From: Clostridia bacterium
Lineage (GTDB): Bacteria > Bacillota > Clostridia > Christensenellales > CAG-138
Assembly (NCBI GenBank): GCA_030533005.1
Contig: JAUNJX010000002.1
Span: 6,429 to 70,428, forward strand
Length of the DNA stretch: 64,000 bases
Direction of reading: 5' to 3'
The position numbers and the translations under genes are program-made. Below the pieces are notes generated by a model. It did not search any database and was not told the DNA's origin. It worked only from the letters and a program-made list of their open reading frames with translations. Of the stretch, positions 3,036 to 51,524 are shown in pieces (the first letter of the stretch is position 1; the number at the start of each line of letters is the position of its first letter).

Positions 3036-3185
3036 GCGCTTCGCTTTCGCAAACCCGGCTTCGCCGCCTTTGCGAGAAAACGGTTTTCTGCTGTTCGCTT
3101 CGCTTACGGCCGCAGCAAACCGCAAAGAATGAAATCCTTCGGATTTACAAGCGTCCGCACCGGCAAAGCCGATGCGGACGAATTA
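3036..3185. repeat. mosaic hairpin-array repeat, copy R1
   Basis: Starts directly after the jag stop with GCGCTTCGCTTTCGC. Contains module AAATCCTTCGGATTT (3132-3146) and module CGTCCGCACCGGCAAAGCCGATGCGGACG (3152-3180), both shared with other loci. Confidence 0.8.
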
Positions 3186-3257
3186 GCCTAAAGAGATATG
3201 AATGCAGAACCGCGCAGTAGGAAGGGCGAAGCCATTTCTTTGAAAGGAGCAAGCATA

Positions 3258-4586
3258 ATGGATACCATCTTTGCCCCCGCAACGCCCTCGGGCGGCGCGC
3301 TGTGCGTGCTGCGCGTGAGCGGGCCGGACAGCCGCCGCGTTTTGCGCGAGGCGTTTTCAGCAAAGGATATGCAGCCCCGCTTTATGACCTACGGGCGGCT
3401 TTTGGGCGCGGCGGGCGAAACGCTGGACGTTTGCATGGCCGTGTTTTTTGCCTCCCCGCATAGCTATACGGGCGAGGATATGGCGGAATTCTATCTCCAC
3501 GGCGGACAGGCCGTGGTAAAGCGGGCGCTCGCGCGCATGACGGCGCTGGGGCTTCGCATAGCGAATCCCGGCGAGTTTACGCAGCGCGCCTTTTTGAACG
3601 GCAAGACCGACCTCTCCCGCGCGGAGGCCGTGATGGATGTGATCAACGCGACTGCCGGGCGCGCGGCGGACGCCGCCGTCGAACAGCTTGCGGGCGGCTT
3701 GCAAAAGCGCATCACGGACGTGGAGGCGGCGCTGCGCGCAGTACTTGCCGCCCTGGACGCCGCCATCGATTATCCCGAGGAGGTGGAGGAGGACGTGACG
3801 GCCGCCCTGCCCGCCGCTTTACAAAGGGCGGCGGCGGACATACGCGCGCTTGCGGAAAACGGTGTAAAAAACCGCGTTCTGCGCGAGGGGGCGAAGGTCG
3901 TCATCATCGGCGCGCCCAATGTGGGCAAATCCTCTCTTTTAAACGCGCTGTTGCAGGAGGAGCACGCCATCGTCACGGACGTAGCCGGCACCACGCGGGA
4001 CGTGCTGCAGTTCGACGCGGATTTTGACGGCGTGCCCGTGCGGCTCTACGACACGGCGGGTCTGCATGAAAGCGTCGACGCGGTGGAGCGTATCGGCATA
4101 GAGCGGGCATGGAAGCAGGCGGAAAAGGCCGATCTTTTGCTTGTGGCGCTGGACGCGTCGCGCGCGCTTCGGGCGGAGGAGGAAGCGCTGCTAAAGAGCC
4201 TGGGCAAAAGACCTTACTTACTCGTTTTGTGTAAAGCCGATTTGCCCGAGGTGCTCTCGCTATTTGAAGGGACGCTGCCGCGCTACGCAAGCCGCGCGCG
4301 CGCCCTGTCCGTAAGCGCCGTGACGGGGGAGGGCATCGGGTATCTAAGAAGCGTCATCGCGCAGCTCGTTTGCCCCGAAAGCGAGGCGCTGGTCACCAAC
4401 GCGCGGCATATTGCGCTCTTGCAGCGCGCGCTTGCGGCGGTGGAGCAGGCGAAAGCGGCCGCGGACATGGATTGCGCCGCCACGGATATCCGCGAGGCGC
4501 TCCTGCATCTGGGCGGCATTACGGGAAGTATCGTGGACGACGCGGTGATCGAGGAGATATTCCGCACTTTTTGCGTCGGAAAATGA
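3258..4586 (+). CDS. mnmE: tRNA modification GTPase MnmE
   Basis: ATG 3258 after GAAAGGAG. N-terminus MDTIFAPATPSGGALCVLRVSG, G-domain GAPNVGKSSLLNAL, C-terminal FCVGK. The ORF-track start at 3198 is an extension. Confidence 0.92.
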   Translation: MDTIFAPATPSGGALCVLRVSGPDSRRVLREAFSAKDMQPRFMTYGRLLGAAGETLDVCMAVFFASPHSYTGEDMAEFYLHGGQAVVKRALARMTALGLRIANPGEFTQRAFLNGKTDLSRAEAVMDVINATAGRAADAAVEQLAGGLQKRITDVEAALRAVLAALDAAIDYPEEVEEDVTAALPAALQRAAADIRALAENGVKNRVLREGAKVVIIGAPNVGKSSLLNALLQEEHAIVTDVAGTTRDVLQFDADFDGVPVRLYDTAGLHESVDAVERIGIERAWKQAEKADLLLVALDASRALRAEEEALLKSLGKRPYLLVLCKADLPEVLSLFEGTLPRYASRARALSVSAVTGEGIGYLRSVIAQLVCPESEALVTNARHIALLQRALAAVEQAKAAADMDCAATDIREALLHLGGITGSIVDDAVIEEIFRTFCVGK

Positions 4587-4645
4587 CGGCGGGAAATATT
4601 CGCCTAAATTTCCCATGGAAAGCATGGTATAAATTTGTTATAATA

Positions 4646-4682
4646 AGCCTTGCATGCGATAAGCGGTGCAAGGCTTTATTTT
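4646..4682 (+). terminator. intrinsic terminator after mnmE
   Basis: Stem AGCCTTGCA (4646-4654) / TGCAAGGCT (4667-4675) followed by TTATTTT. Confidence 0.6.
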
Positions 4683-4700
4683 AAAGGGGTAATAAGCGGA

Positions 4701-7283: not shown

Positions 7284-8117
7284 ATGCCAAAGATCGACAT
7301 TTTAAGGGAACGCTCCAACATACACGACAAGCTGCTCACGCAGATACCCGTGGCGGACATTCGCCCCAACCCCAGCCAGCCCCGCGCCACCTTTGATACG
7401 GAGAGCATCAAGGAGCTTGCGCAGTCCATTTCGGCGGTGGGTCTGATACAGCCCCTCGTTGTGCGGCGCGCCGAAAACGGCTACGAGCTGGTCGCGGGGG
7501 AGCGCAGGCTTCGCGCGGTCAAGCTGCTGGGCATGGAGCGGGTCGCCTGCATCGTGCAGGATATGATGGAGGAGCAGTCCGCCATGATCGCGCTGATCGA
7601 AAATTTGCAGCGCGAGGATCTCTACTATATGGAGGAGGCGCAATGCTACGAGACGCTCCTTAAGACCTACAACATGACGCAGGAGGAGCTTGCGCGGCGT
7701 TTGGGCAAGAGCCAGAGCGCGATTGCCAACAAGCTGCGGCTTTTGCGCCTTGCCCAGCCCGTCAAGGACGCCATGCAGACGGCGAACCTGACCGAGCGGC
7801 ACGCGCGCGCGCTATTGAAGCTGCAAAACGAGCAGGAGCAGCTTGCCCTCATCAAGCGCATCGGCGACAAGGGTCTTTCCGTCAAGGAGACGGAAAAGCT
7901 GGTGGATAAGACGCTGGACGCCCTTTATGATAACCGTGCCGACGGCGCAAAGCCGCGCCCCATGATCGTGCGCATGGTGAAGGACTACAGGCTTTTTATG
8001 AACACCATCAATCTGGCCGTGGAGCAGCTGCGCGAGGCGGGCTTTGCCGTGGAGGTCTCGCAGGAGGACTTGCAGGACGGCGTGGATATCGGGATAAGGG
8101 TGAAAAGACCAAGCTGA
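7284..8117 (+). CDS. noc: nucleoid occlusion protein Noc (ParB-family)
   Basis: ParB box GLIQPLVVRR...YELVAGERRLRA and HTH QEELARRLGKSQSAIANKLRLLRL. The C-terminal RLFMNTINLAVEQLREAGF...IGIRVKR resembles Bacillus Noc. Position after rsmG. Confidence 0.82.
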   Translation: MPKIDILRERSNIHDKLLTQIPVADIRPNPSQPRATFDTESIKELAQSISAVGLIQPLVVRRAENGYELVAGERRLRAVKLLGMERVACIVQDMMEEQSAMIALIENLQREDLYYMEEAQCYETLLKTYNMTQEELARRLGKSQSAIANKLRLLRLAQPVKDAMQTANLTERHARALLKLQNEQEQLALIKRIGDKGLSVKETEKLVDKTLDALYDNRADGAKPRPMIVRMVKDYRLFMNTINLAVEQLREAGFAVEVSQEDLQDGVDIGIRVKRPS

Positions 8118-8290
8118 CGCTTTCGCGCCGGGTCATGCGACCCGGCGCGAGATTTTCACTTTGCAACTGTGCGCATACGCGCACGGTCGTTGCAAAGCGC
8201 AGGGACTGAAATCCTTCGGATTTACACACGCCCGCGCCGGCAAAGCCGGCACGGGCGAATGAAGCCTCCGTCCCCATCGGCTCCCCGGAG
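8118..8290. repeat. mosaic hairpin-array repeat, copy R2
   Basis: Starts at the noc stop with CGCTTTCGCGCCGGGTCATGCGACCCGGCGCG. Contains TTGCAAC...GTTGCAA, AAATCCTTCGGATTT (8209-8223) and CGCCCGCGCCGGCAAAGCCGGCACGGGCG (8229-8257). Confidence 0.8.
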
Positions 8291-8427
8291 ATATGAAAGA
8301 AAGAGAAGCCTGCCGTGAGCCGACAAGCTTCTTTTTTGCGCAACAAAGGGGGATTGGCAAGGGCGCTCCCTTGACATAGATTCCGGCTCTGACGGCATGT
8401 ACGTCAGAACGGATGAAAGGCGAAGCC

Positions 8428-8925
8428 TTACCTACAGCATGGATTGCAGCAGGGGTTGATGTATGTGCCGTCCACATACATGCAGGGATACTTTTTGCTG
8501 ACCTCCTTGGGCTTGATCTTGTCCAACGCGATGGCGTTCCATGCGATGGCGGCGCGTGCGGATTCCGCCAGCGCCTCCGGTGAGCCGTCGCTTCCGCAGG
8601 AGGAAAGGGCGACGCCGCCTTGGGAAAGCGTCTTGCCGTAATCGCGGATCAGATCTTGGATGGGCAGGCCTTCGTTATAACGAAGATAGGTGGTCATGAG
8701 CTTGCCAAAGCGCTCGATATCAAAATCCTTGAGCTTTTTGGACTGCCCCATGGCCGCAAGCGCGTTCGCGCCCGGCTCGCTCGTGTTGACATAGGCGAGT
8801 ATGATGCTCTCGGCCTCCTTGAGCTGGCTTACATATTTGCTGTCGGACGCTGCAAGGCTCGTGGCGCAGAAGGAAAGAGAAAGCAGCAGCACAAGCACAA
8901 ATGCGGTAGTTTTTCGTATGTTCAT
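8428..8925 (-). CDS. secreted hypothetical protein with Cys-rich C-terminal tail
   Basis: ATG at 8925 after GGAGGTG. Signal peptide MNIRKTTAFVLVLLLSLSFCATSLAAS. Ends PCMYVDGTYINPCCNPCCR. The longer track ORF (to 9162) runs into a repeat array. Confidence 0.7.
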   Translation of the reverse strand: MNIRKTTAFVLVLLLSLSFCATSLAASDSKYVSQLKEAESIILAYVNTSEPGANALAAMGQSKKLKDFDIERFGKLMTTYLRYNEGLPIQDLIRDYGKTLSQGGVALSSCGSDGSPEALAESARAAIAWNAIALDKIKPKEVSKKYPCMYVDGTYINPCCNPCCR

Positions 8926-9029
8926 GGAAACACCTCCCAAATCGTCTTTCTTTAGAATACTATCATTATAGGGAAAAATATACGCTTTTGCAAGGCGGTT
9001 CATAAAAAAGCGGCAAAGGACTTCGGAAT

Positions 9030-9232
9030 TGCAACCCCCGGAAGCCAAAATCGCCCGCACCGGTACAAGGCGAGTTGCCGTTAGGCTAAAATCGCCCGCA
9101 CCGGCTTTGCCGGTACGGGCGGAGCGTAAATCCGTCAGGATTTCGTACCCTGCCATTCGCAACGCCCGTGAACGAAGTGAACAGTTGCGAATGGAAAAGC
9201 TCGCTCCCGATCGGTAGATCGGGAGCGAAAGT
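9030..9232. repeat. mosaic hairpin-array repeat, copy R3
   Basis: GCAACCCCCGGAAGCCAAAATCGCCCGCACCGG..., CGCCCGCACCGGCTTTGCCGGTACGGGCG, AAATCCGTCAGGATTT, TTCGCAAC...GTTGCGAA; same module order as at 44600-44700. Confidence 0.8.
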
Positions 9233-9235
9233 GGT

Positions 9236-10678
9236 TTACCACTGGTGTCTTACAATGGGGTTTCTTGCCGCCGCCACCTCGTCGGGTCTGCCGACGGGCG
9301 TGGTGAGGGGCATCTTGTGCATGGCCTCGGGATCGGATAGGGCGATCTGGGCGATCTCCTTCATGGCCTGTACGAAAGCGTCCAGCGTTTCGCGGCTTTC
9401 GGTCTCGGTAGGCTCGATCATCATGGCCTCGTGCACGATGAGCGGGAAATAGATCGTGGGCGGATGTACGCCGTAGTCGATCAGTCCCTTGGCGATATCC
9501 GAGGTGTGCACGCCCTTTTCGATCATCTCCTCCGTGGGGGTGACGACGCATTCGTGCATGCAGATGCGGTCGTGCGGCAGATCGTATACGCCGCGCAGCA
9601 TCCCCATGACGTAGTTGGCGTTGAGCACGGCGTTCTGCGCGCCCTCCGTAATGCCCACGCCGCCCATGCTCTCGATGTAGGCAAGGGTCTTGAGCATGAC
9701 GGAGAAGTTGCCGTAAAACGCCTTTACCTTGCCGACGGAAAGCGGACGGTCATACTCGAGCCTTCCGTGTTCGCCGTCGCGCACCACCACGGGTATGGGA
9801 AGGAACTGCGCAAGCTCGGCCGTACAGCCGACCGCGCCGCAGCCGGGGCCGCCGCCGCCGTGCGGGGTGGAGAAGGTCTTGTGGACGTTCAGGTGCAGCA
9901 CATCAAAGCCCATGTCGCCCGGACGCGCCACGCCCATGACCGCGTTGAAGTTCGCGCCGTCGTAGTAGCACAGGCCGCCCGCGTCATGCACGATCTTGGT
10001 GATCTCGAGGATGTTGTGGTCGAAAATGCCCAGCGTGTTGGGGTTGGTGAGCATAAGACCCGCTACGTCCGGCCCCATGGCCGCACGGAGTGCCTCAAGA
10101 TCGACGCCGCCGTCGGGTGCGGACGCGATCTCGCGGATCTTAAAGCCGGCAAGCGCTGCGGACGCCGGATTGGTGCCGTGCGCGGCGTCGGGTACAACGA
10201 TGACGGTGCGCTCGTAGTCCTTGCGGTTGTCGTGATAGGCTTTAATAAGGGTAAGACCCGTGTATTCGCCATGCGCGCCCGCCGCAGGCTGCAGCGTGAA
10301 CGCGGGGAAGCCCGTGATCTTTGCCAACGCCTCGTCGATCATGAGCATCACGTCCACCGCGCCCTGCGTGCAGGATGCGTCCGCATAGGGATGCAGGTTT
10401 TCAAACAGCGTTGCGATCTCCTCATTGATCTTGGGATTGTACTTCATGGTGCAGGAGCCAAGCGGGTAGAAGCCGTTGTCCACGCCGTAATTGCGGCGGG
10501 AAAGGCCGACGAAATGGCGCACCATGTCCACCTCCGCAAGCTCGGGGAGCTTGACGGGAGCTGTTTTTTTGCAGGACGCGGGTATAACGTCCTTTTCCGG
10601 CACGTCCAGCTTGGGCAGGTCATAGCCCTTGCGGCCGGGGAGCGATCTTTCAAAGACCAGCTTATAGGCACTTCTCAT
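9236..10678 (-). CDS. gcvPB: glycine dehydrogenase (decarboxylating) subunit 2
   Basis: ATG at 10678 after GGAGGTG, with an ATGA overlap on the gcvPA stop. Product MRSAYKLVFERSLPGRKGYDLP... carries the PLP-site region HLNVHKTFSTPHGGGGPG. Confidence 0.92.
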   Translation of the reverse strand: MRSAYKLVFERSLPGRKGYDLPKLDVPEKDVIPASCKKTAPVKLPELAEVDMVRHFVGLSRRNYGVDNGFYPLGSCTMKYNPKINEEIATLFENLHPYADASCTQGAVDVMLMIDEALAKITGFPAFTLQPAAGAHGEYTGLTLIKAYHDNRKDYERTVIVVPDAAHGTNPASAALAGFKIREIASAPDGGVDLEALRAAMGPDVAGLMLTNPNTLGIFDHNILEITKIVHDAGGLCYYDGANFNAVMGVARPGDMGFDVLHLNVHKTFSTPHGGGGPGCGAVGCTAELAQFLPIPVVVRDGEHGRLEYDRPLSVGKVKAFYGNFSVMLKTLAYIESMGGVGITEGAQNAVLNANYVMGMLRGVYDLPHDRICMHECVVTPTEEMIEKGVHTSDIAKGLIDYGVHPPTIYFPLIVHEAMMIEPTETESRETLDAFVQAMKEIAQIALSDPEAMHKMPLTTPVGRPDEVAAARNPIVRHQW

Positions 10679-12015
10679 TTGAGCACCTCCTTGAGCGCGG
10701 CGACAACGCCGTCCAGTTCTTCTCTGGTGTTGAGCTCCGTGGCGCACCAGAGCATGCCATGCGCGTCCGCCTTATCGAAGCGGGAGAGCGGCAGGCCGCT
10801 CATATAGCCCGCCTTCAAGAGCGCTTTGTCCACCTTTTCGGCCTTCTCGTCGAAATCCACCACGAATTCGTGGAAGAAGGGGGTGTTGGGATAGCGCAGC
10901 TTTGCGCCGGGGAGCGCTGTAATCGCGTCTGCAAGGTAATGCGCCTTCTGTACGCACTGCTCCGCGACCTCCTCTAAGCCCTGCGGACCCATGACGCTAA
11001 GGTACATGGACGCGGTCACGGCGCAAAGGCACTGGTTGGAGCAGATGTTGCTCGCCGCCTTTTCGCGGCGGATGTGCTGTTCGCGGGCGGAGAGGGTCAA
11101 ACAATACACGCGGTTGCCCTCGTCGTCCGTCGTCTCACCCACGATGCGGCCCGTGAGGCTGCGCATGAGCTTGGAGGTGGTGGCTACGAAGCCCAGGTAC
11201 GGCCCGCCGAAGTTAAGCGGCATGCCAAGCGGCTGCCCTTCGCCCAGCGCGAAATCCGCGCCGTAATCGCCGGGCTTTTTCAGCTCGCCCAGCGATATGG
11301 GGTTGACGACTGCGCCAAAGAGCAGGCCGCACGCGTGCGCCGCCTCCACCAAAGCGTCCATGTCCTCGATATTTCCCAGGAAATTCGGATTGGCGACCAG
11401 GATGCCCGCAGCGCCCTCTGCAAGCGCTGCGATGGCCTTGCCGTCCGTCTGGCCGTAAGCGCAAAGCGGCACCTCGACAAGCTCGATGCCCGCAAAGCGC
11501 GCGTAGGTCTTCATGGTCTCAACATATTCAGGATGCAAGCCCGCGGAGTAGAGCACCTTTGCCTTGCGCTTGCTTGCGCGCATGGCGATCATCACCTCGG
11601 CGCAGGCGTGCGCCCCGTCGTAAACGGAGGCGTTGGACGCGTCCATGCCCGTGATGTCGCAGATCATGGTCTGGTATTCAAAGATGGCCTGCAGCATGCC
11701 CTGGCTCATCTCGGTCTGGTAGGGGGTGTAGGCGGTGTAGAACTCGCTGCGCGCAAGCAGCTGCGGTATCGCCGCCGGGATGTAGTGATGGTAAGCGCCG
11801 GCGCCTCTAAAGATGGGCGTGGACTGATCCGTGTTCGCCGCAAGGGACGCAAACAGCCTCCGTATCTCCATCTCGCTTTTGCCCTCGGGTAGATCGAGGG
11901 ATTTGAGCAGCATATCGGCGGGCACATCCACGAAAAGATCGTACATGTCCTTTAAGCCGATAGCTTCCAGCATGGCCTGACGCTCGCTCTCCGTATTGGG
12001 AACGTAGCTTCTCAT
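10675..12015 (-). CDS. gcvPA: glycine dehydrogenase (decarboxylating) subunit 1
   Basis: ATG at 12015 after GAAAGGAG. Product MRSYVPNTESERQAMLEAIGLKDMYDLF...YTPYQTEMSQGMLQAIFEYQTM. The track start at 12117 extends into the repeat array. Confidence 0.92.
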   Translation of the reverse strand: MRSYVPNTESERQAMLEAIGLKDMYDLFVDVPADMLLKSLDLPEGKSEMEIRRLFASLAANTDQSTPIFRGAGAYHHYIPAAIPQLLARSEFYTAYTPYQTEMSQGMLQAIFEYQTMICDITGMDASNASVYDGAHACAEVMIAMRASKRKAKVLYSAGLHPEYVETMKTYARFAGIELVEVPLCAYGQTDGKAIAALAEGAAGILVANPNFLGNIEDMDALVEAAHACGLLFGAVVNPISLGELKKPGDYGADFALGEGQPLGMPLNFGGPYLGFVATTSKLMRSLTGRIVGETTDDEGNRVYCLTLSAREQHIRREKAASNICSNQCLCAVTASMYLSVMGPQGLEEVAEQCVQKAHYLADAITALPGAKLRYPNTPFFHEFVVDFDEKAEKVDKALLKAGYMSGLPLSRFDKADAHGMLWCATELNTREELDGVVAALKEVLK

Positions 12016-12029
12016 AAAACTCCTTTCTA

Positions 12030-12340
12030 TGCTTCGCTTTCGCTCCAACAGCTTTGTCGTTGGAGCGAGGTTTACACGCTTTGCCTCTCGCCCTGCGGGC
12101 TTCAAACGGCAAAACATGAAGGGGGATTGTCAAGGGGTCGAGACCCCTTGACTACCAACCGCCCGAAGCGACACACCCCAGGGTGGCTTCTCTTGCCGCT
12201 ATGCGGCAATTCACCTTCTGCGCGGTGAGGGCGGTTGGGCTTGCAAAGCAAGGCTTTCTTTTCGCGTTACAACGGCCGTCCGCGATAGCGGACAGTTGTA
12301 ACGTGTGATCTCAAGAAAGGACGAATGTCCTTTCTTGAAA
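12030..12340. repeat. mosaic hairpin-array repeat, copy R4 (inside the gcv operon)
   Basis: A chain of about 8 hairpin modules between gcvH and gcvPA. GCTTCGCTTTCGCTCCAAC...GTTGGAGCGAGG and TTTGCCTCTCGCCCTGCGGGC recur at 44360-44450. The 113-nt block 12122-12234 recurs inverted at 15258-15370. Confidence 0.85.
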
Positions 12341-12342
12341 AG

Positions 12343-12708
12343 CTATTGGGCGATCTTTGCTTCGTAAGCGGCTGCGTCCATGACCTCGCCATCGATGGCG
12401 CCCTCGAACACGGCGATATAGTTTTCCCACGCGTCGGCGTTCAGCAGCGCCGGGTCGTCGTTGAGCGCTTCGTTGACGGCCACGACCTTGCCCGTTACCT
12501 GCGTGTAAATCTCCGCGGCTGCCTTGACGGATTCCACCACGGCGAAATCGTCGCCCGCCTTGAATTCGTCGCCCACGCCGGGCAGATCCACGAACACGAT
12601 GTCGCCCAGCTCATGCTGCGCAAAGTCCGTGATGCCGACCTTCAGCTTGCCGTCTTCCTCCAGGATCCATTCGTCGTTTGCGGTGTACTTGCGATTGGTA
12701 GGTACCAT
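12343..12708 (-). CDS. gcvH: glycine cleavage system H protein
   Basis: Lipoyl motif AVVESVKAAAEIY and ITDFAQHELGDIVFVDLP; RBS AAGGAGGA. Confidence 0.95.
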   Translation of the reverse strand: MVPTNRKYTANDEWILEEDGKLKVGITDFAQHELGDIVFVDLPGVGDEFKAGDDFAVVESVKAAAEIYTQVTGKVVAVNEALNDDPALLNADAWENYIAVFEGAIDGEVMDAAAYEAKIAQ

Positions 12709-12801
12709 TGTTTGTTCTTCCTCCTTAGAATTGTTTATTTGAGTGAGTTAGGTAGTCATAAAACCTCGAAAATGTGGCATAGCCACTTTCCCGAAAGGGC
12801 G

Positions 12802-13881
12802 TTACGCCCTTTTATAGAACGGCAGCGGCACCTGCACGGCCTTGAGCTTCTTGCCGCGCACCTCGATCTCGAAATCCGTCGCGTCCGCCACATCCATATC
12901 CACCAGCGCCATGGCGTGCGAGCCTTCGAGTGTGGGCACGAATACGCCGGAGGTGGTCTGCCCCACGAGCTTGCCGTTGCAGTAGACGGGATAATGCTCG
13001 CGCACGATGCCGCGATCCGTCACCTTGAGGCCGATGCGCTTGCGCTTGGGCGGATCGACGAGTGCGGATTTACCGATAAAGTCGTCCTTGTTCATCTTGA
13101 CGGCAAAGCCGATGCCGACCTCCATGGGCGTGATGTCCTTTTCCATCTCGTGGCCGTAAAGGGGCATGCACGCTTCAAAGCGGAGGGAATCGCGGGCGGC
13201 CAGCGCGCAGGGCACGATGCCGGTCTTGTCCGCGGTCGCAAGCAGCGCTTCAAACAGCTTCGGCGTATCCGCCGCCTTGCAGTAGATCTCCACGCCGTCC
13301 TCGCCGGTATAGCCCGTGCGGCTCATCATGCAGTCGATACCCGCTACCTTGATGGCGGGGGTGAAGGTGTAATTCTTTTCGGGGATCGCGCCTTCATAGC
13401 CTACAGCGTCCAGCACCGCCATGAAGTTGGGACCCTGTAAGGCGACCTGTCCCCATTCGGGGCTCTGGTTCACCAGCTTCACATCGCCAAAGAGGTGGGA
13501 TTTGAACCATTCGTAATCCTTGTCCGTGTTGCCGGCGTTGACGATGATGAGGTAATGCTCGTCGTCGTACTTGTAGACGAGGATATCGTCCACCACGCCG
13601 CCGTCCTCATAGCAGAGCATGGAATAGCGGCAGCGACCCGGGGTCATGGTGGTCAGATCGTTGGTGCACAGCTTTTGCAGATACGCAAACGCGTCCTTGC
13701 CGCTTACATCCATCTCGCCCATGTGCGATACGTCGAACAGGCCTACGTTTTTGCGCACCGCCATGTGCTCCTCGATGGGCGAGGAATACTGCACGGGCAT
13801 GGCCCAGCCGCCGAAATCGACGATCTTCCCGCCCAACTTCACATGCGTGTCGTAGAGCGGCGTCTTCTTGAGATTCTCCAT
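12802..13881 (-). CDS. gcvT: aminomethyltransferase (glycine cleavage system T protein)
   Basis: MENLKKTPLYDTHVKLGGKIVDFGGWAMPVQY...HMAVRKNVGLFDVSHMG; RBS AGGAGGTA. Confidence 0.95.
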   Translation of the reverse strand: MENLKKTPLYDTHVKLGGKIVDFGGWAMPVQYSSPIEEHMAVRKNVGLFDVSHMGEMDVSGKDAFAYLQKLCTNDLTTMTPGRCRYSMLCYEDGGVVDDILVYKYDDEHYLIIVNAGNTDKDYEWFKSHLFGDVKLVNQSPEWGQVALQGPNFMAVLDAVGYEGAIPEKNYTFTPAIKVAGIDCMMSRTGYTGEDGVEIYCKAADTPKLFEALLATADKTGIVPCALAARDSLRFEACMPLYGHEMEKDITPMEVGIGFAVKMNKDDFIGKSALVDPPKRKRIGLKVTDRGIVREHYPVYCNGKLVGQTTSGVFVPTLEGSHAMALVDMDVADATDFEIEVRGKKLKAVQVPLPFYKRA

Positions 13882-14044
13882 GTGTACCTCCTATATTCTA
13901 TTATTGCCTTTAACAAGAGAAGGGTATGCCGAAATGGTTTTGCTCCCATCATTATATAACAATTTGAGGCTGTGCAAAAGGGGAAATATACCGTGATGAG
14001 AGGGGGAAGGGTATAGGAATTTCCTATAGGAAGAAAAATGGAAA

Positions 14045-14227
14045 GCTTTTTAGGGGGTCCGGGGGCCACGGCCCCCGGAGGGTGATTCGCCTACAGCGGC
14101 TTTGCCGGTGGAGGCGTGCGTAAATCCGAAGGATTTCGGACTTTGCAAGCTGCAACGGCCGCGAGCAATGCGAGCAGATGCAGCTTGTAAGCTCGAAAGA
14201 AGGCCGGTAAGCCTTCTTGCGAAACGG
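14045..14227. repeat. mosaic hairpin-array repeat, copy R5
   Basis: GGGGGTCCGGGGGCCACGGCCCCCGGAG, CGCCTACAGCGGCTTTGCCGGTGGAGGCG, AAATCCGAAGGATTT, CTTGCAAGCTGCA...TGCAGCTTGTAAG, CTCGAAAGAAGGCCGGTAAGCCTTCTTGCGAAA. Confidence 0.85.
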
Positions 14228-15052
14228 TCATGCCGCCTTTAATACCATATATAATCTTGCGCCGGTTTTGCCGCCCACCTTGTCACCGCAGGTGATGAGG
14301 ATCATGAGCTTGTCGCTTGATGAGGCGGTGCCCACCGTCATGCCCTTCTTTGAGCTGCCCGCGCGGGAGAGCTGATAGTCAAGCCAGCTGGATACGCCGC
14401 CCGTGGAGAGGGCGTTGAAGGAGAGGGTGGAGGCGGGCTCGCTGGATTCCGTCTCGTAAAAGCAGACCAAGTCCCACTTTTTATAGCCGTCGTAGCTGAG
14501 GTCAAAGCTGCTTGCCTTGTGGGAAGCCGTGCAGCTTGCGCCGCAGCGTTCGCACTTGCCCTTTCCCAGCCACGCGTTTTGCACATGATGAAGGGCGTGG
14601 AACATCTTGCCGGATTTGCGCATGTTATGCCCCATGATGACGGCGACCTGTGCGTTTTGCGGGGTCATGGAGAAGATGTGGTTATAATCCTTGTTATAGT
14701 AGTAGCCGCCCTTGCCGTCGGAGCGGTTGCTGTAGATGCTGTAGCTGCGTCCGCCGGGTATGCTGATGCTGCCCCACACATCGCCCTTGGCGCTTACCGT
14801 GCCGGGCGTAGGGGTGGGGGCGTCGGAGGCCGCAGCGCCTGCTTCCGTTTCGCGGGGAGGCTGCGGCGTAACGGCAGCGGCGGTAGGCGTGGGCGCGGGC
14901 GTCCCCAACGACTGCCAAGGCGTGGGCGTGGGGGAAGCTGTGGGCGCGGGCGTGCTTTTTGCAAGCGCCGCGGAGGCGAAGATGCTAAAAAAGATACTGC
15001 CGATAAAGAGTGCCGCCATCAGTATGGCGATAAGACGAGTGATTCTTTTCAT
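14228..15052 (-). CDS. membrane-anchored sortase-fold (class B-like) protein with Pro/Thr-rich linker and CxxCxxxC insert
   Basis: N-terminal TM segment, then a PT-rich linker. Sortase-like motifs: VIMGHNMRKSGKMFHAL (His), LMILITCGD (TLxTC-like Cys) and GARLYMVLKA (Arg). Insert KCERCGASC. Confidence 0.75.
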   Translation of the reverse strand: MKRITRLIAILMAALFIGSIFFSIFASAALAKSTPAPTASPTPTPWQSLGTPAPTPTAAAVTPQPPRETEAGAAASDAPTPTPGTVSAKGDVWGSISIPGGRSYSIYSNRSDGKGGYYYNKDYNHIFSMTPQNAQVAVIMGHNMRKSGKMFHALHHVQNAWLGKGKCERCGASCTASHKASSFDLSYDGYKKWDLVCFYETESSEPASTLSFNALSTGGVSSWLDYQLSRAGSSKKGMTVGTASSSDKLMILITCGDKVGGKTGARLYMVLKAA

Positions 15053-15127
15053 AGGGGTCGACCGGTATTCCTTTCGGATAGTTGTGCAAACAAATCACGG
15101 GTATTCTATCACATGCCAGGATAAAAG

Positions 15128-15375
15128 AAAAGGGCTGTCGCCAGCCCTTGTTATCGGCAAAGGTCACTCGACCTTTGCCGATGCTTACAATTTGTAACTG
15201 TTCGCTGTGCTCACGGTCGTTATAAATTGCGGAGAAACCCTTGCTGCGCAAGGCATTCCGCCCTCACCGCGCAGAAGGTGAATTGCCGCATAGCGGCAAG
15301 AGAAGCCACCCTGGGGTGTGTCGCTTCGGGCGGTTGAAAGTCAAGGGGCTGCGACCCCTTGACAATCCCCAAAGG
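15128..15375. repeat. mosaic hairpin-array repeat, copy R6
   Basis: Hairpins AAGGGCTGTCGCCAGCCCTT and CGGCAAAGGTCACTCGACCTTTGCCG, plus the inverted copy (15258-15370) of the 12122-12234 block. Confidence 0.85.
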
Positions 15376-15404
15376 GTTGTCGGTGACGTAAGGCGTATTG
15401 TTTG

Positions 15405-16181
15405 CTACTTTACCTTGGCGAAATCCTCTTTGCGCCCGTAGCCCGTGCAGTCCTCGTATTTCAAGAGATACCATTCGCCGTTTTCGGCCACGGCCAGGAA
15501 TTCCTTGTCCTTCATGCCCGAAAGCTTGCGGTTGATATTGCTCGACGAGGTGGAATCGTCCGGCGTGTTGCGAAGCCAGATGTTGTTCTGGGTGGATTTT
15601 AGCTTGATGGGGTCGGTGAGCACGTCGTCGCTTTTGTGCAGCAGGCCTTTTTCGATGTAGTCGGACTTTACATAGCCGGTGGTGTTCTTCATGGTTTTAA
15701 CCTTGGTGTAATCGCCGTCGGTGCCAAGGATGGTGAGCAGGTCGTTTTTATACACCTTGCCCAGCGCGTTCTTTTCGGCCGTGCGGTTGATGTTGACCCA
15801 ATCCTTGCAGTTGACCACATGCCCGTAGGTGACGGTCTTTTTGGCGGAGGCTGTGGATTTTGCGGCGGCCGGGACTGTGGCTGTGACCGTTGTGGCGGCG
15901 GGCGCCGTGAAAGAAACATCGCTTTTATCCACAAAGCCCTGCCGACCCTGCGCGGAAACGAAATAGTAGGTTTCCTGTTCGCTGAGAACCAAAACCTCGC
16001 CTGCAGCAAGGCTGCCGATCACCCGCCAGCCGCAGCCTGTCGCGTCGCAGACCTCGGCGGAAAGCGCGGTGCCCGCCTTTACATAGCCGGTCTTGGTTTC
16101 GGCAAGCGCCGTGGGCAGCATGGAAAAAAGACAGCAGACGCAAAGAGCTGTACACAAAGCTTTTTGCAAACAACGTTTCAT
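15405..16181 (-). CDS. secreted SH3b-repeat protein
   Basis: ATG at 16181 after GAAAGGAG. Signal peptide MKRCLQKALCTALCVCCLFSMLPTALA. Repeated SH3b-like units (GYVKAG..., GDYTKVKTMKNTTGYVKSDYI, GEWYLLKYEDCTGYGRKEDF). Confidence 0.8.
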   Translation of the reverse strand: MKRCLQKALCTALCVCCLFSMLPTALAETKTGYVKAGTALSAEVCDATGCGWRVIGSLAAGEVLVLSEQETYYFVSAQGRQGFVDKSDVSFTAPAATTVTATVPAAAKSTASAKKTVTYGHVVNCKDWVNINRTAEKNALGKVYKNDLLTILGTDGDYTKVKTMKNTTGYVKSDYIEKGLLHKSDDVLTDPIKLKSTQNNIWLRNTPDDSTSSSNINRKLSGMKDKEFLAVAENGEWYLLKYEDCTGYGRKEDFAKVK

Positions 16182-24276: not shown

Positions 24277-24515
24277 GGATGCGCTTCGAGCTCACACGTT
24301 TTACCTCTCGCCCCGTTGGGGCGCCGGACGGTAAAGCGTGCAGGATGCGCCTTGCGAACAGCCGCCGCGCATAGGCTGTCAAACTCGCCTATGTCGCCGG
24401 TATAGAATCTAAGATGGGTATCCGTTTTTAAAAGAAACGCAATTGCTCTTGCTATGCGTTCCGCTATATCTTGGGCATAAACCTGTCTATGCCCAATAAA
24501 TGTGCAGATTTTCAT
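24273..24515 (-). pseudogene. probable 3'-truncated SLOG/DUF1273-like gene fragment
   Basis: MKICTFIGHRQV...YTGDIGEFDSLCAAAVRKAH resembles the N-terminal half of DUF1273/SLOG proteins. The frame then degenerates and collides with the methyltransferase stop. Confidence 0.4.
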
Positions 24516-32214: not shown

Positions 32215-32410
32215 CACGGACGGCTAAAGAACCCATGGGGGTTCGGGGGCCGCAGCCCACGGAGGCTTGATTCGTGAGCGGCGACATGTGCGCCGCGAGC
32301 GAAAGCCCTTGCTTGCCAAGGGTTTCTCTGCACGGGATGCTGGCCGCGCCGCAGGCGCAAGCAGCCCGTGAAAACTCGAAAAACGTGGCGAAGCCACTTT
32401 TTCGAAACTT
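32215..32410. repeat. mosaic hairpin-array repeat, copy R7
   Basis: GGGGTTCGGGGGCCGCAGCCC, AGCCCTTGCTTGCCAAGGGTT, CACGGG...CCCGTG, CTCGAAAAACGTGGCGAAGCCACTTTTTCGAAA. About 130 nt are homologous in inverted orientation to 48235-48375. Confidence 0.85.
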
Positions 32411-32429
32411 GTGAGGTGATCCTTCCTTT

Positions 32430-35384: not shown

Positions 35385-35560
35385 TGGAGCCGCGCCCCGG
35401 AGGTTATATTCCGGCTCCGCCGGGTTTGCCGGCGGAACGGGGAGAGCCAAGGGCTCGAGCCCTATCGCATTTTGACGGACATGCCCGAAGGGCATAGTCA
35501 AAATGCGGAAACCTCAAAAGGCGTCAGCGTTTTGCCTCTCGCGCCGCAAGCAGGCATTGG
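35385..35560. repeat. mosaic hairpin-array repeat, copy R8
   Basis: TTCCGGCTCCGCCGGGTTTGCCGGCGGAACGG (inverted homolog at 44470-44505), CGCATTTTGAC...GTCAAAATGCG, TTTGCCTCTCGC module. Confidence 0.75.
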
Positions 35561-37257: not shown

Positions 37258-37299
37258 ATGCGCACAGCGTATATAGCGAACAATAGCGCTCCACAATGA

Positions 37300-39038: not shown

Positions 39039-39051
39039 AGCACTCTCCCGC

Positions 39052-44354: not shown

Positions 44355-44764
44355 CGCGCTGCGCTTTCGCTCCAACGACTTCGCCGTCGGAGCGAGGTTT
44401 GCACGTTTTGCCTCTCGCCCTGCGGGCTCCGAACGGCAAACCGTGAGCGGAAACGGCCACTTGGGCCGATCCGTTCCGCCGGCAGAGCCGTCGGAGCCGG
44501 AACAAATGGGGCTGCCGCCCCATACCCCGGGGGATTCGGGGGTCAGATTCGGATTAAAGCCACAGATGCCGCCCCATACCCTGGGGGATTCGGGGGTCGC
44601 AACCCCCGGAAGCTAAAATCGCCCGCGCCGGCTTTGCCGGTGCGGGCGTGTGTAAATCCGAAGGATTTCAGTCTCTGCGCTTTTCGGCGGCCGTGAGCAA
44701 ACGCGAACAGCCGAAAAGCGTAACCCTCAGACCCGGTCGCATGACCGGGTCTGAAAGCGAAGCG
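44355..44764. repeat. mosaic hairpin-array repeat, copy R9 (largest compound array)
   Basis: Contains the 12030-12115 modules, an internal tandem TGCCGCCCCATACCCYGGGGGATTCGGGGGTC x2 and the GCAACCCCCGGAAGC / CGCCCGCGCCGGCTTTGCCGGTGCGGGCG / AAATCCGAAGGATTT series. Ends CAGACCCGGTCGCATGACCGGGTCTGAAAGCGAAGCG at the AEC gene stop. Confidence 0.85.
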
Positions 44765-45733
44765 CTACACGAATAGCATCAATATCGGCACCGCCGCAAA
44801 GCACGCGATGGTGCTGATGCTCATGCCGAGCGCCGCGTACCCCTCGTCCGCGCCGCATTCGGCGCTTAGCACCACCACCTGCGTCATGACCGGCATGGCC
44901 ATCTCGATCATGAGCATGCTCTTTACGCTGCCCGTGATTCCCAGCGTGCGGCAGAACAGTACGCAGCACACAGGCGCGATCACAAAGCGGAACAGCAGCA
45001 CGAGCGCAAGGCTCAGGGTAAGCTTGCCGCCGCCCGGCTGCGCTTTGGGCGCAGCCTTTTTTGACGCGAACAGCTCATAGATCACAAAGCCCGAATACAA
45101 AAGTGCGATGGGGGAGACGGTGTTCCCCATATAGCCCGCGAAATCGAGGATCAGCTTGGGAAGCTGCACATCCAGTAAAATCAGCACCACGCACAGCGCG
45201 ATCATGTAAAGCGGGGGCTTGATAAACGCCTTTAGAAACTGCCGGAGGGTGCGCCTTTGGCGCGGCTGCTCGTTGCCGTAATTGAGGAATGCCACGCCGA
45301 CGGTCTGAAAGGCAAGGGTGTTGACGATATAGTAGGCAAGCACCACGGGCACCGCGGCGTCGCCAAAGAGCGCCGTGCACATGGGGTAGCCTATGAACAT
45401 GGAATTGGCCACAAAGCACATTACCACAAAAACGCCAAGGCGCTTGGGCGGCAGCTTCAAAAGCCGCGCCACGGCATAGGCGAGCAGCAGCATCACGCCG
45501 ATGCCGCAAACGCTTACCAGCAGCACCGCGCGCATCTCAAGCAGCAGCGCGTGCGTTACCTTGCCCATCAGCCCGTTTACACACATGCAGGGCAGGGCGA
45601 TATTCATGATGTATTTTACAAGGAAAGCCTTGTGCTCGTGCTTCATCCAGCCCATGCGGCCGCAAAAGCAACCCACCGCCGTCATGAGCAGTATCAGCAT
45701 GACGGCGGTGGCGGAATGAGAGAAAGCTTGCAT
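44765..45733 (-). CDS. AEC-family (auxin efflux carrier-like) transporter
   Basis: 322 aa, about 10 TM segments, typical AEC N-terminus and length. Confidence 0.8.
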   Translation of the reverse strand: MQAFSHSATAVMLILLMTAVGCFCGRMGWMKHEHKAFLVKYIMNIALPCMCVNGLMGKVTHALLLEMRAVLLVSVCGIGVMLLLAYAVARLLKLPPKRLGVFVVMCFVANSMFIGYPMCTALFGDAAVPVVLAYYIVNTLAFQTVGVAFLNYGNEQPRQRRTLRQFLKAFIKPPLYMIALCVVLILLDVQLPKLILDFAGYMGNTVSPIALLYSGFVIYELFASKKAAPKAQPGGGKLTLSLALVLLFRFVIAPVCCVLFCRTLGITGSVKSMLMIEMAMPVMTQVVVLSAECGADEGYAALGMSISTIACFAAVPILMLFV

Positions 45734-45735
45734 AC

Positions 45736-47287: not shown

Positions 47288-48193
47288 ATGAAGAAACTGA
47301 TGATGATCCTGATGGCAGCCCTGCTGCTCGTAAGCGCCTGCGCGTGCGCGGCGCCCGCCGCAGCCCCCGCCGCTACCGCCGATCCCGACGTGCTGGCAGA
47401 GGCCGAAGCGAGCTGGACGCTCTCTGAGGAAGCGCTCGCCGAAGAACCCGCGGCAGAACCCGCCGCGGAGGACGATCTTGCCTACATTACGGGCAAGGGC
47501 AACATGGTGATCGGCATCACCATCTTTGAGCCCATGAACTATTACGAGGGCGAAAAGCTGGTGGGCTTCGATACGGAGTTTGCGGAGGCCGTCTGCGCCA
47601 AGCTTGGCGTGACGCCTGAATTCATCGAGATCAACTGGGACACCAAGGAGACCGAGCTTGCCTCCAAGAACATCGACTGCATCTGGAACGGCCTGACCAT
47701 CACTGAGGATCGCAAGGCCAACATGGAGATCACCGATCCGTACATCAAGAACATGCAGGTGGTCGTGGTAAAGGCCGCGAATGCCGCGAACCTTGCGACC
47801 GTGGAAGCGCTTGGCGGCGCCAACCTCGTAGCCGAGATGGGCTCCGCGGGCGAGACCGTCATCAAGGAGGACGCCGTCCTCTCCGGTGCGAACTTCGTCG
47901 CCGTTGCCAAGCAGACCGACGCGCTGCTGGAGGTCAAGGCGGGCACGGCCGACGCGTGCGTGCTGGATTACACGCTTGCGAAGTCCATGGTGGGCGAGGG
48001 CACGGACTTTGCCGATTTGCAGATGGTGGACGGGCTTGAGCTTGCCGTCGAAGAATACGGCGTAGCCTTCCGCAAGGGCAGCAATGTTGCCGCGGCTGTC
48101 AACGAGCAGATCACGGCGCTCACGGGCGACGGCACCATGGACAAGATCGCGGAGACCTACGGCCTCACCGATTCGCTGCTGTCGAATCAGTAA
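47288..48193 (+). CDS. amino-acid ABC transporter substrate-binding lipoprotein
   Basis: Lipobox LLLVSAC and an Ala/Pro/Glu-rich linker, then an SBP_bac_3-like body (MVIGITIFEPMNYYEGEKLVGFDTEFA); RBS GAAGGAG. Confidence 0.85.
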   Translation: MKKLMMILMAALLLVSACACAAPAAAPAATADPDVLAEAEASWTLSEEALAEEPAAEPAAEDDLAYITGKGNMVIGITIFEPMNYYEGEKLVGFDTEFAEAVCAKLGVTPEFIEINWDTKETELASKNIDCIWNGLTITEDRKANMEITDPYIKNMQVVVVKAANAANLATVEALGGANLVAEMGSAGETVIKEDAVLSGANFVAVAKQTDALLEVKAGTADACVLDYTLAKSMVGEGTDFADLQMVDGLELAVEEYGVAFRKGSNVAAAVNEQITALTGDGTMDKIAETYGLTDSLLSNQ

Positions 48194-48385
48194 GAGCTTC
48201 GCTTTCGCGCGAAGTCTATCGGACTTCGCGCGACTTTTTCACGGGTCGCTTGCACCTTTGGTGCGGCCAGCGCCCCGTGCAGAGAAGCCCTTGCATAGCA
48301 AGGGCTTCCGAATCTGACGCGCATGTCGCCAGATTCGGTTTTAACCTCCGGGGGCTGCGGCCCCCGAACCCCCGGAGCTTTGGCA
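48194..48385. repeat. mosaic hairpin-array repeat, copy R10
   Basis: Starts GAGCTTCGCTTTCGCGCGAAG directly after the stop. CACGGG...CCCGTGCAGAGAAGCCCTTGCATAGCAAGGGCTT...GGGGGCTGCGGCCCCCGAACCCC is the inverted homolog of R7. Confidence 0.85.
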
Positions 48386-49905: not shown

Positions 49906-50199
49906 ATGTATGAAAGCAGATTAAAAAGCGAGGCGGCGGATGCGCTGTTCAAGGCCATTCTGGCGCTGCAAAACGAGGAGGAGTGTTACCGCTTCTTTGA
50001 GGATGTGTGCACCATCAGCGAGGTTGGCTCCATCGCGCAGCGCTGGGAGGTGGCAAGGCTTCTCTTTGAGGGTCTTACCTACAGCGCCATCGCAGAACGG
50101 ACGGGGGCGAGCACCGCGACCGTATCGCGCGTGGGCAAATGCCTCAATTATGGCGCGAACGGCTACCGGCTGGTACTCGATCGGCTTGCGGACAAATAG
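49906..50199 (+). CDS. YerC/YecD-family TrpR-like protein
   Basis: FFEDVCTISEVGSIAQRWEVARLL...TGASTATVSRVGKCLNYGANGY matches the YerC/YecD pattern. Confidence 0.8.
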   Translation: MYESRLKSEAADALFKAILALQNEEECYRFFEDVCTISEVGSIAQRWEVARLLFEGLTYSAIAERTGASTATVSRVGKCLNYGANGYRLVLDRLADK

Positions 50200-50203
50200 A
50201 CTA

Positions 50204-50232
50204 TTGACAATTCCTAGCAGTTCACTTATAAT
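50204..50232 (+). promoter_or_regulatory. promoter of the cysK leader
   Basis: TTGACA (50204-50209), 17-nt spacer, TATAAT (50227-50232). Confidence 0.6.
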
Positions 50233-50238
50233 TGGCGC

Positions 50239-50292
50239 ATGATGAATTTTGAGGCATGTTTCTGTTGTTGTTGTACACAGGGACGCCCGTAA
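50239..50292 (+). CDS. candidate polycysteine leader peptide MMNFEACFCCCCTQGRP
   Basis: 17 codons plus stop with TGT TTC TGT TGT TGT TGT at 50257-50274. The ATG is 6 nt after the -10 hexamer with no SD. Followed by hairpins and a terminator upstream of cysK. Confidence 0.45.
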   Translation: MMNFEACFCCCCTQGRP

Positions 50293-50374
50293 AGCCGAAG
50301 GGCGGACGCGGGCGGCTCCTATAGCCGTGCCTGTGTCCATAACAGCGGAAGGTCTTTTATTTGTAAGAAAAGAC

Positions 50375-50407
50375 AAAGCTATGTGCATAGGCATATAGCT
50401 TTTTTTG
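50375..50407 (+). terminator. leader (attenuator) terminator upstream of cysK
   Basis: AGCTATGTGC (50377-50386), loop ATAG, GCATATAGCT (50391-50400), T6 (50401-50406). Confidence 0.7.
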
Positions 50408-50477
50408 CGCTTCGCTTGCACCCCATATATTGGGTTTGCACATAGATTATAAGAAATACCAAAGGAGGAATTACAAA

Positions 50478-51440
50478 ATGGAGACCATTGCAAACGCAGT
50501 CGGCAACACGCCTTTGATCCGTATCGACTACCGCTACGAGGGCAGGGACGGCTGTATCTATACGAAGCTGGAAAGCTATAACCTCACCGGCAGCATCAAG
50601 GACAGGATGGTGGCGTATGTGCTCAAGCAGGCGCAGGAAAAGGCGGAGCTGAAAACCGGCCAGCCCATCGTGGAAACGACCTCCGGCAACACGGGCATTT
50701 CCATCGCCGCCTACGGCAGCAGCCTGGGGCATCCCGTGCACATCTTCATGCCGGATTGGGCGAGCCGGGAGCGCACGGAGCTCATGCGCATGTACGGCGC
50801 GGTCGTCCACCCCGTATCCCGCGAGGAGGGCGGCTTTATCGAAGCGCTGCGCCGATCCTATCTCTTTGCCAAGGAGGTCGGGGCATACCGCACGGATCAG
50901 TTCAACAACTACGATAACGTCATGGCACATTACTATGGCGTAGGCCCCGAGCTGTTGCAAGCCTTGCCCGACGTGGGCGCCTTTGTTTCCGGCGTGGGTA
51001 CGGGCGGCACGCTCATGGGCGTCACCAAGAGGCTCAAGGAGGATCACCCCACCCTTGCCGTCGCCGTGGAGCCGGACGCGGCCCCCATGCTAAGCGAAGG
51101 CAGGATCTACGGCCCGCACGGCATCGAGGGCATAGGCGACGACTTCATCCCCACCATCGTGGATAAAAGAAAGATCGACAGGGTCATCACCGTCAACGAT
51201 AAAGACGCCATGAACATGTCCCGCATGCTCGCGCGCGTGCTGGGGCTGGGCGTGGGCATATCCTCCGGCGCCAACCTGCTGGGCGCTGTGCAGCTCAAAG
51301 CTGGCATGGACGCGCCCGTCGCCACCGTATTTGCGGACGACAACAAAAAGTATCTCTCCACCGCCCTTTGCGGCGAGATCGTGGAGGAGGAAGGGTTTAT
51401 CTCCAATAAGATCGAGCTGTTAAGGTATGAGAGGGTGTAA
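50478..51440 (+). CDS. cysK: cysteine synthase (O-acetylserine sulfhydrylase family)
   Basis: ATG 50478 after AAAGGAGGA. PLP-lysine region ESYNLTGSIKDR and TSGNTGISIA, GVGTGGTLMG. Confidence 0.9.
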   Translation: METIANAVGNTPLIRIDYRYEGRDGCIYTKLESYNLTGSIKDRMVAYVLKQAQEKAELKTGQPIVETTSGNTGISIAAYGSSLGHPVHIFMPDWASRERTELMRMYGAVVHPVSREEGGFIEALRRSYLFAKEVGAYRTDQFNNYDNVMAHYYGVGPELLQALPDVGAFVSGVGTGGTLMGVTKRLKEDHPTLAVAVEPDAAPMLSEGRIYGPHGIEGIGDDFIPTIVDKRKIDRVITVNDKDAMNMSRMLARVLGLGVGISSGANLLGAVQLKAGMDAPVATVFADDNKKYLSTALCGEIVEEEGFISNKIELLRYERV

Positions 51441-51454
51441 CGAAAACAATGCGT

Positions 51455-51524
51455 AAAACTCGCCCCCGGTCGCATGACCGGGGGCGAAGCGCTACTGCGC
51501 ATGACCGGGGGCGAAGCGCTACTG
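51455..51524. repeat. hairpin module plus 27-bp tandem duplication (copy R11)
   Basis: CGCCCCCGGT-CGCATG-ACCGGGGGCG hairpin. CGCATGACCGGGGGCGAAGCGCTACTG occurs twice in tandem (51471-51497, 51498-51524). The second copy contains the mscS stop codon. Confidence 0.85.

Follow-up and report, generated by a model that had tools for sequence, protein, structure and literature searches.

Among the modular repeats that lie between bacterial genes, the BOX elements of Streptococcus pneumoniae (boxA-boxB-boxC) are an example from a Firmicute, with a fixed module order and a variable internal number of modules. REP (repetitive extragenic palindromic) sequences and bacterial interspersed mosaic elements (BIMEs) of Enterobacteria and Pseudomonas, known together with the RAYT/TnpA-REP transposases, are short GC-rich palindromes, present in high copy number, strictly extragenic and grouped in mosaic clusters. 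They occupy 3' untranslated regions (UTRs) and spacers within operons, including those between binding-protein and permease genes, avoid spacers that hold only promoters, often touch or supply a stop codon, vary in position between strains and keep their palindromy through compensatory changes. GTAG REPs often provide the TAG stop codon (PMC3733652), and a model E. coli REP acts as a partial terminator and as a stabiliser of the upstream mRNA, with REP positions differing between strains (bioRxiv 10.64898/2026.03.23.713779). Here we describe a family of hairpin arrays in a stretch of 64,000 nucleotides from an uncultured Clostridia bacterium of gut type (assembly GCA_030533005.1, contig JAUNJX010000002.1, positions 6,429 to 70,428), referred to below as the window. 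The arrays share with REP and BIME these properties of composition, number, position and palindromy. They probably make up a repeat family specific to their lineage, non-coding, interspersed and built of palindromic modules, which in a small clade of uncultured Clostridia would correspond in function and evolution to REP/BIME and to pneumococcal BOX.

About 60 hairpins, all intergenic and 14 of them copies of a boundary module T, could be identified within the 64 kb. They fall into about ten kinds of module, each a hairpin of 25-50 nucleotides (nt), which are joined in recurrent orders that are kept while the middle modules vary. The order T-d-a-b-(c), read in one orientation, is common to five arrays. 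The order T-X-j-k, in which X is a long hairpin (CACGTTTTGCC...GGCAAAACGTG), occurs in the arrays at 12031, 44358 and 35515 (reverse), T-d-f-multibranch-h in those at 12342 (reverse) and 15142, and T-...-f-g-c in those at 48193 and 32417 (reverse). A first-pass annotation of this DNA had spoken of a BIME-like mosaic repeat family filling the intergenic regions, which is fair as to kind, and all 11 array spacers that it listed do contain homologous modules, in both orientations, with every listed array and module where it had been placed. Its list can be extended by members at 24277-24345, 15142-15193 and 56974-57024, and a weak b-like hairpin lies near 62100-62150.

Homology between copies spans stems and linkers, over 90-213 nt and with 71-87% identity. 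Self-comparison of the window revealed long homologies between spacers only: when all spacers were compared with the window by BLAST, every match was in another spacer and none in coding DNA, the best one linking 12122-12333 to 15370-15159 (82% over 213 nt, E = 1e-55). A network of homologies joins the arrays at 3036, 8118, 9004, 14031 and 44575. A repeat search of the window identified three pairs of inverted homologues, 12122-12279 with 15213-15370 (158 nt, 87%), 8118-8270 with 44607-44759 (153 nt, 80%) and 32237-32374 with 48236-48373 (138 nt, 78%), the last of which is the inverted homology of about 130 nt claimed previously for 32230-32375 and 48235-48375. Direct pairs are formed by 12031-12119 with 44358-44446 (87%) and 3101-3183 with 8178-8260 (80%), and the combined pattern of modules a and b occurs four times in the window against 0.00 expected. 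Short-read contigs of the same genome terminate within modules b and T (window positions 3183, 3154 and 8146). The arrays are also present in independent assemblies, which excludes the assembly artefact that had been raised as an objection.

Literature searches for the conserved 13-mer of T (see below) and for REP-like repeats in Clostridia or Oscillospiraceae yielded no relevant work. No array matched an Rfam family at E <= 1 in 8100-15420 of the window or in three loci of related genomes (L009, L016 and L019; relatives' loci are designated by L numbers throughout), in line with the earlier view that this is not a described family.

The boundary module T consists of a conserved 13-mer (GCTTCGCTTTCGC), a variable stem-loop of 20-21 nt between CGC and GCG, and the sequence GCGAG-nTTT(c)AC. 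A covariance model was built from 22 copies and searched against the window and the loci of relatives; in the window it finds 14 copies, 6 on the + strand and 8 on the - strand, with an orientation that follows the genes and not replication. T always forms the outer edge of an array and points inward. Seventeen of the 22 copies are in sense and begin 1-12 nt past a stop codon, and the remaining five represent the distal end of their array, adjoining the ribosome-binding site of the downstream gene. A module (e) distinguished in the first-pass annotation does exist, albeit not as a separate module, since it corresponds to T read on the other strand; T is also found at the head of the arrays at 3036, 8118, 12031, 44358, 48196, 44764 and 51524. 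The tetranucleotide GTAG precedes the 13-mer in three of the 22 copies, in two of which it includes the stop codon, and modules a, b, c and d carry neither a GTAG nor a CGTC tag. In a terminator scan of the first 20 kb, the top two sites are T copies (8121-8152 on the + strand and 9229-9200 on the - strand); the other T copies in this region have 3-5 T bases or none and did not pass. Two further readings were rejected: the arrays do not continue the upstream reading frame, as the 13-mer is not in a constant frame with respect to the stop codon from one copy to another, and T is not a DNA uptake sequence, as its conserved 13-mer is a single-copy flank and not a stem.

The arrays occupy operon spacers and 3' UTRs, with genes assigned by Pfam. 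In the gcv operon (gcvT, T hairpin, gcvH, 326 nt, gcvPA, gcvPB, 232 nt; arrays on the - strand unless stated), a solitary T hairpin (12754..12806, 40 bits) overlaps the gcvT stop codon, and a type II array (T-d-f-multibranch-h, 12122..12350) begins directly after the stop codon of gcvH. The distal, inward-pointing end of the same gcvH-gcvPA array is formed by a T and an X module (12028..12121, + strand), adjoining the gcvPA ribosome-binding site, and gcvPB is followed by an array of type I (9018..9240), in which T-d-a-b is extended by an incomplete second b and by c. Another type I array (T-d-a-b-c, 14045..14234, -) is located after a sortase-like gene, upstream of the gcvT promoter region. 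Other arrays inside operons are a type I array (T-d-a-b, 3035..3190, +) in the jag-mnmE spacer, with a T (3035-3087, 43 bits) that begins 2 nt past the jag stop codon, and a type III array (T-...-f-g-c, 48193..48385, +) between a solute-binding protein gene and its permease gene. A type I array with an additional c-like module (T-d-a-b, 8111..8290, +) follows the parB-like gene, with a canonical terminator (8304-8332) downstream.

Two arrays, one of type II (15128..15375, +, with its T at 15142-15193) and one of type III (T-...-f-g-c, 32215..32417, -), are antisense to their flanking genes, and the T of the latter abuts the ribosome-binding site of a downstream CNNM gene. A composite array between convergent genes (44355..44766) reads T-X-j-k rightward from 44355 and T-d-a-b-c leftward from 44766, and both of its T copies begin 1-3 nt past a TAG stop codon. 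The array at 35385..35560 (-) has modules X, j and k in common with 44394-44502 (71% over 109 nt), and a solitary X module (24277..24345, +; 80% identical to 44402-44445) follows a methyltransferase gene. Further members are a solitary T-like hairpin directly past a TAG stop codon (56974..57024, -; 24.7 bits, E = 2.4e-4) and a T hairpin with a 27-nt tandem duplication that takes in the MscS stop codon (51441..51524, -). This duplication (51468-51521) comprises the final codons and stop of the MscS gene together with the left hairpin arm of T, and resembles a product of slippage during replication of the hairpin.

Where a spacer holds a promoter, the array is on the stop-codon side, ahead of a canonical terminator (8304-8332, 15130-15149), and none of the six divergent, promoter-only spacers of the window contains an array. 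In a related metagenome-assembled genome (MAG), a T-d-a-b-h array (L002 4650-4780) is found after an apparent signal recognition particle (SRP) RNA gene, identified by eye; if this identification holds, arrays also sit after RNA genes.

Comparison of closely related genomes shows a rapid turnover, in which arrays have been inserted, deleted and rebuilt module by module. Three congeners with about 88-90% identical gcvT DNA have conserved synteny and near-identical promoters and ribosome-binding regions, yet their arrays differ. Between gcvH and gcvPA the window has 326 nt and L030 has 288 nt that contain other modules; in L036 this site is empty, with a spacer of 9 nt. L030 lacks the arrays at 8118 and 15128, and the site of the latter is also empty in L036, with a spacer of 117 nt in both. 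After cysS an array is present in L030 and L036 and absent in the window, while the sortase-like gene is followed by T-d-a-b-c in the window versus T-(T)-d-f-g-c in L030 and L036. The ortholog of 12028..12121 in L030 (11785-11836) agrees with it in the flanks but not in the stem; the solitary T at 12754..12806 has an ortholog with an unrelated stem in L036, and L030 lacks the module. Since orthologous T copies keep their flanks while their stems are unalignable, beside genes that are 88% identical, the stems must be replaced as units. One stem type (ACAAAGGGC-AAG) is found in both L030 and the more distant L008 lineage.

Three contigs that encode an identical GcvT protein also differ, with a gcvT-gcvH spacer of 235 nt in two (L008 and L010) versus 463 nt in the third (L009). 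The two versions split precisely at the end of the 13-mer and come together again at the distal T in reverse orientation. In L009 the alternative array of 392 nt has no match among the other loci compared, while that of L008 forms an inverted repeat with itself (70% over 150 nt). L001 lacks the T hairpin in its jag spacer, as a clean 33-nt indel after GCTTCG. The T covariance model finds additional copies in L006, L008/9, L016, L019, L030 and L036, and none in L005, L011, L012 and L013. Relatives with 75-77% GcvT protein identity, including a complete 2.44-Mb genome, have short spacers and no family member. A scan of public genomes with the a+b pattern gave two loci, both in one related MAG; a first metagenome scan gave no matches, and one with the T pattern gave eight loci, of which only L016 and L019 are real and the others chance matches in coding DNA. 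All eight matches of the T pattern to viral contigs were due to chance. The family behaves as interspersed repeats, not as locus-specific regulators.

Other repeats were observed in the same genomes. AT-rich motifs (TAATGAGTAATGAG / ATTACTCATTAC) bracket two homologous bidirectional terminators in the window (28750-28905 and 55490-55600; 86-89% over 56-70 nt) and fill the gcvT-gcvH spacer in relatives (L030 11081-11194; L006 5370-5470); they constitute a second, unrelated repeat family. In the 2.44-Mb relative without the hairpin family (L005), at least two spacers (near 8600 and 19680) contain a palindromic repeat of its own that is rich in AT, CCCGGTTCTTTTCTT(T)AAAGAAAAGAA(A/C)C.

Short imperfect palindromes in many extragenic copies, which is the general definition of REP-like sequences, are found here; the REP head and the BIME alternation are not. 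The mosaic use of a limited set of modules is common to the arrays and BIMEs. Unlike REP and BIME, the arrays belong to a Gram-positive-type Clostridia lineage, show no sequence similarity to them, have about ten kinds of module where REP/BIME have two or three, and reserve one module for the boundary, in which a 13-mer is conserved and the stem is hypervariable at a fixed length. The resemblance to BOX, which is drawn from general knowledge and not from sequence comparison, lies in the modular intergenic build and the predicted stable hairpins. BOX differs in that the present family has many more module types, exchanges its internal modules, and places a boundary hairpin next to the stop codon.

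Under the favoured reading of a modular interspersed repeat family, segments would be exchanged between copies through recombination or gene conversion, for which the conserved flanks and the modules that copies have in common would serve as anchors; this would explain both the mosaicism and the cassette-like stems. Stem complementarity may be kept at the DNA level, either by template switching or repair within palindromes or by recognition of folded single-stranded DNA, and a REP-associated HUH tyrosine transposase would be the obvious candidate for the spreading enzyme. Judging from their position and by analogy, the hairpins would be transcribed into 3' UTRs and intercistronic RNA, where T resembles a weak intrinsic terminator just past the stop codon. 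Arrays would then act as partial terminators and as barriers to 3' exonucleases, uncoupling neighbours such as binding protein and permease or gcvH and gcvPA; a role as partial terminator and mRNA 3' stabiliser is likely, if the analogy with REP applies.

Several points weigh against this reading. Different modules succeed each other in one orientation, and the alternating Y/Z arrangement of BIMEs is absent. The typical REP GTAG/CGTC head is missing, its place at the head of T being taken by the 13-mer. No transposase or HUH gene, including PF01797, was found in Pfam scans of 40 window proteins or in the gene tables of the relatives' loci compared. T is without the replication-strand bias that an IS200/IS605-like single-strand mechanism would predict, and only two of its 14 copies were picked up by the simple terminator scan, which covered the first 20 kb. 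Finally, the terminator and stabiliser role is derived from analogy, and the genome-wide copy number is an extrapolation only.

A more specific mechanism inside the favoured explanation would be that of REPIN/PATE-type non-autonomous elements, in which a single-copy HUH tyrosine transposase (RAYT, IS200/IS605 family) recognises the folded T and its 5' flank in single-stranded DNA. The conserved flanks, fixed hairpin length and variable stem of T suit recognition of structure plus flank, and indels and swaps break cleanly beside the 13-mer. Inverted T copies bound the arrays at 12028-12350 and 44355-44766 in a REPIN-like manner, and the L008 array is its own inverted repeat, as in REPINs; most arrays are asymmetric, for example T-d-a-b-c. 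The GTAG that precedes three T copies is in agreement with this mechanism, although it does not amount to a consistent GTAG/CGTC head. As neither the 64-kb window nor the loci of relatives yielded such a gene, and as the six and eight T copies on the two strands of one replichore show no lagging-strand bias, we regard this mechanism as possible but rather doubtful.

The folding of the arrays is pronounced. In comparison with dinucleotide shuffles, z-scores of -10.2 and -7.8 were obtained for the arrays 12017-12342 and 44355-44764, respectively; with mononucleotide shuffles, array-bearing spacers mostly score between -3 and -10 and other spacers between about 0 and -4.5, with some overlap. In the T stems, 90.9% of 308 cells form a standard pair versus 60.8% in shuffles, and 87 cells are altered on both sides versus 31. 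The covariation score of T is 0.711 versus 0.193 for shuffled alignments, with none of 500 shuffles reaching the observed value and slid controls at 0.13-0.21. In the type I alignment of seven sequences, 27 of the 48 pairs keep pairing through double changes. The compensatory stem changes that had been noticed in the first-pass annotation are therefore real and significant.

Such covariation, together with very low folding energies, could indicate that the hairpins are structured cis-regulatory or small RNAs, kept by selection on the RNA fold and each serving its neighbouring gene. The T copies are mostly in sense just past stop codons, and conserved U.G pairs are present at the T base in 18 of 22 copies and in all 7 copies of module d. 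In addition, the window and L001 agree at 87% of positions in the d-a-b unit that follows jag, versus 82-85% for jag and 79% for mnmE; this unit is less variable in its stems (7 of 72 columns) than in its linkers (8 of 37), and it has a locus-specific compensated pair in b. Some constraint exists, as this element is more conserved than the neighbouring genes.

However, RNA under selection on one strand normally shows an excess of G.U pairs, and no RNA-type strand asymmetry was detected by folding energies, G.U counts or the comparison of G.T with A.C mismatches. On the sense strand, mismatches in T stems comprise seven G.T and seven A.C (264 cells), pairing being almost purely Watson-Crick; single-sided wobble-type changes are nearly absent in the T and type I alignments; and whole arrays fold equally well on both strands, with G.U totals of 69 versus 65. 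The same modules follow unrelated genes, orthologous sites in congeners are empty or different, and no Rfam family matches, which together make regulatory RNAs of this type improbable. The earlier conclusion that the stems point to selection on structure and not just to copying could not be established, given the lack of wobble bias, the equal folding of both strands, the swapping of stems as units and the two antisense arrays. Template switching and repair within palindromes are an established source of "compensatory" change in DNA and would account for pairing of the Watson-Crick type alone, with no need for selection on RNA. The data fit a DNA-level upkeep of palindromes, with exchange between copies, at least as well as RNA selection, and better than selection on RNA alone.

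We also consider, as a speculation with little probability, that T is a new kind of site-specific hairpin cassette and not a decaying repeat, in which the 13-mer, 1-12 nt past stop codons, would mark the point where an enzyme inserts or exchanges the 20-21 nt palindrome and the module strings behind it. Firmicutes would then possess a novel system of recombination or mobility that acts on folded DNA, or else a translation-termination-coupled attenuator with interchangeable stems. The suggestion is based on a cassette length that does not vary, on breakpoints that fall cleanly at the 13-mer, on the unrelated stems of orthologous copies and on stem "alleles" that are found in more than one species.

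It is very improbable that the arrays are ordinary miniature inverted-repeat transposable elements (MITEs) from a DDE transposon, or independently evolved look-alikes of intrinsic terminators. The copies are indeed short, non-coding and dispersed, and T resembles Rho-independent terminators as a GC-rich hairpin of 12-14 bp followed by nTTTT, with a run of 3-5 T bases. In comparisons of filled and empty sites between the window, L030, L036, L001 and L008/L009, however, the array ends showed neither a target-site duplication nor a common terminal inverted repeat. Moreover, a T run is missing from most modules, the tract that follows T is interrupted and short, and T has a conserved 5' 13-mer, belongs to a repeated element and occurs inside operons, where full termination would harm. 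Homology that includes linkers and the order of several hairpins is not expected from convergence.

Integron-like attC arrays, or another known folded-DNA recombination site, can practically be dismissed, as can an assembly artefact in view of the independent assemblies: T does keep structure and short flanks with a free stem sequence, as in attC, which suggests recognition of folded single-stranded DNA, and the stem base of module d is AAC...GTT, but the d feet TTGCAAC/GTTGCAA do not fit RYYYAAC/GTTRRRY, the R''/R' core motifs are missing, extrahelical bases are lacking from the stems, which are perfect, no gene for an integrase occurs in the vicinity, and the sites, instead of forming one array, are dispersed between syntenic housekeeping genes and not gene cassettes.

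A family of interspersed modular palindromes as favoured here would show that the REP/BIME phenomenon, mostly studied in Proteobacteria, also occurs in a clade of uncultured Clostridia, where its modular form is richer. Filled and empty sites in genomes only a few percent apart could reveal the ways in which palindromic repeats spread, exchange modules and maintain the pairing of their stems. If arrays do tune termination or mRNA stability in gcv or ABC transporter operons, they would provide a fast-evolving regulatory layer in gut anaerobes. In this lineage, the arrays also cause MAG assemblies from short reads to break up, and they could be used to tell strains apart.

The replication origin adjoins the start of the window, with rpmH, rnpA, yidD, yidC, jag, mnmE, mnmG, rsmG and the parB-like gene. 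The window has a GC content of about 59% and a cumulative GC skew that climbs across its full length, and hence represents one replichore. Housekeeping genes were found by the Pfam scans of 40 window proteins. The encoded GcvT is identical to NCBI MDO5110782.1 ("MAG: Clostridia bacterium"), and the nearest public genome is GCA_964571055.1, labelled as uncultured Oscillospiraceae.

Several additional features were encountered in the window. A lysine riboswitch (Rfam RF00168, 109 bits; 37276-37457, - strand), the sole Rfam match in the window at the gathering threshold, is located upstream of a Na+/H+ antiporter-family gene (35566-37176). A low-GC island (37644-40536, 41% versus about 59%) contains an unknown open reading frame (ORF) of 464 residues and an MBOAT acyltransferase gene, and looks horizontally acquired. 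Two copies of a 27-nt palindrome, AAATGTTTCACATGAAACAATAT (22570-22596 and 24986-25012; 93% complementary), flank the methyltransferase gene mentioned above and look like an operator. A structured leader (50198-50429, z = -4.1), which has no Rfam match and falls outside the hairpin repeat family, is situated between a small ORF (49907-50197), presumably TrpR/YerC-like as guessed without a family scan, and the gene for a pyridoxal phosphate-dependent enzyme. Just beyond the window, in the same genome, a gene of the 23S_rRNA_IVP family (L003 1121-1432) lies between gyrB and gyrA. Within the jag coding region (2316-2505), tandem CGCGACGACCGNCCC repeats with a periodicity of 15 nt probably encode a low-complexity linker.

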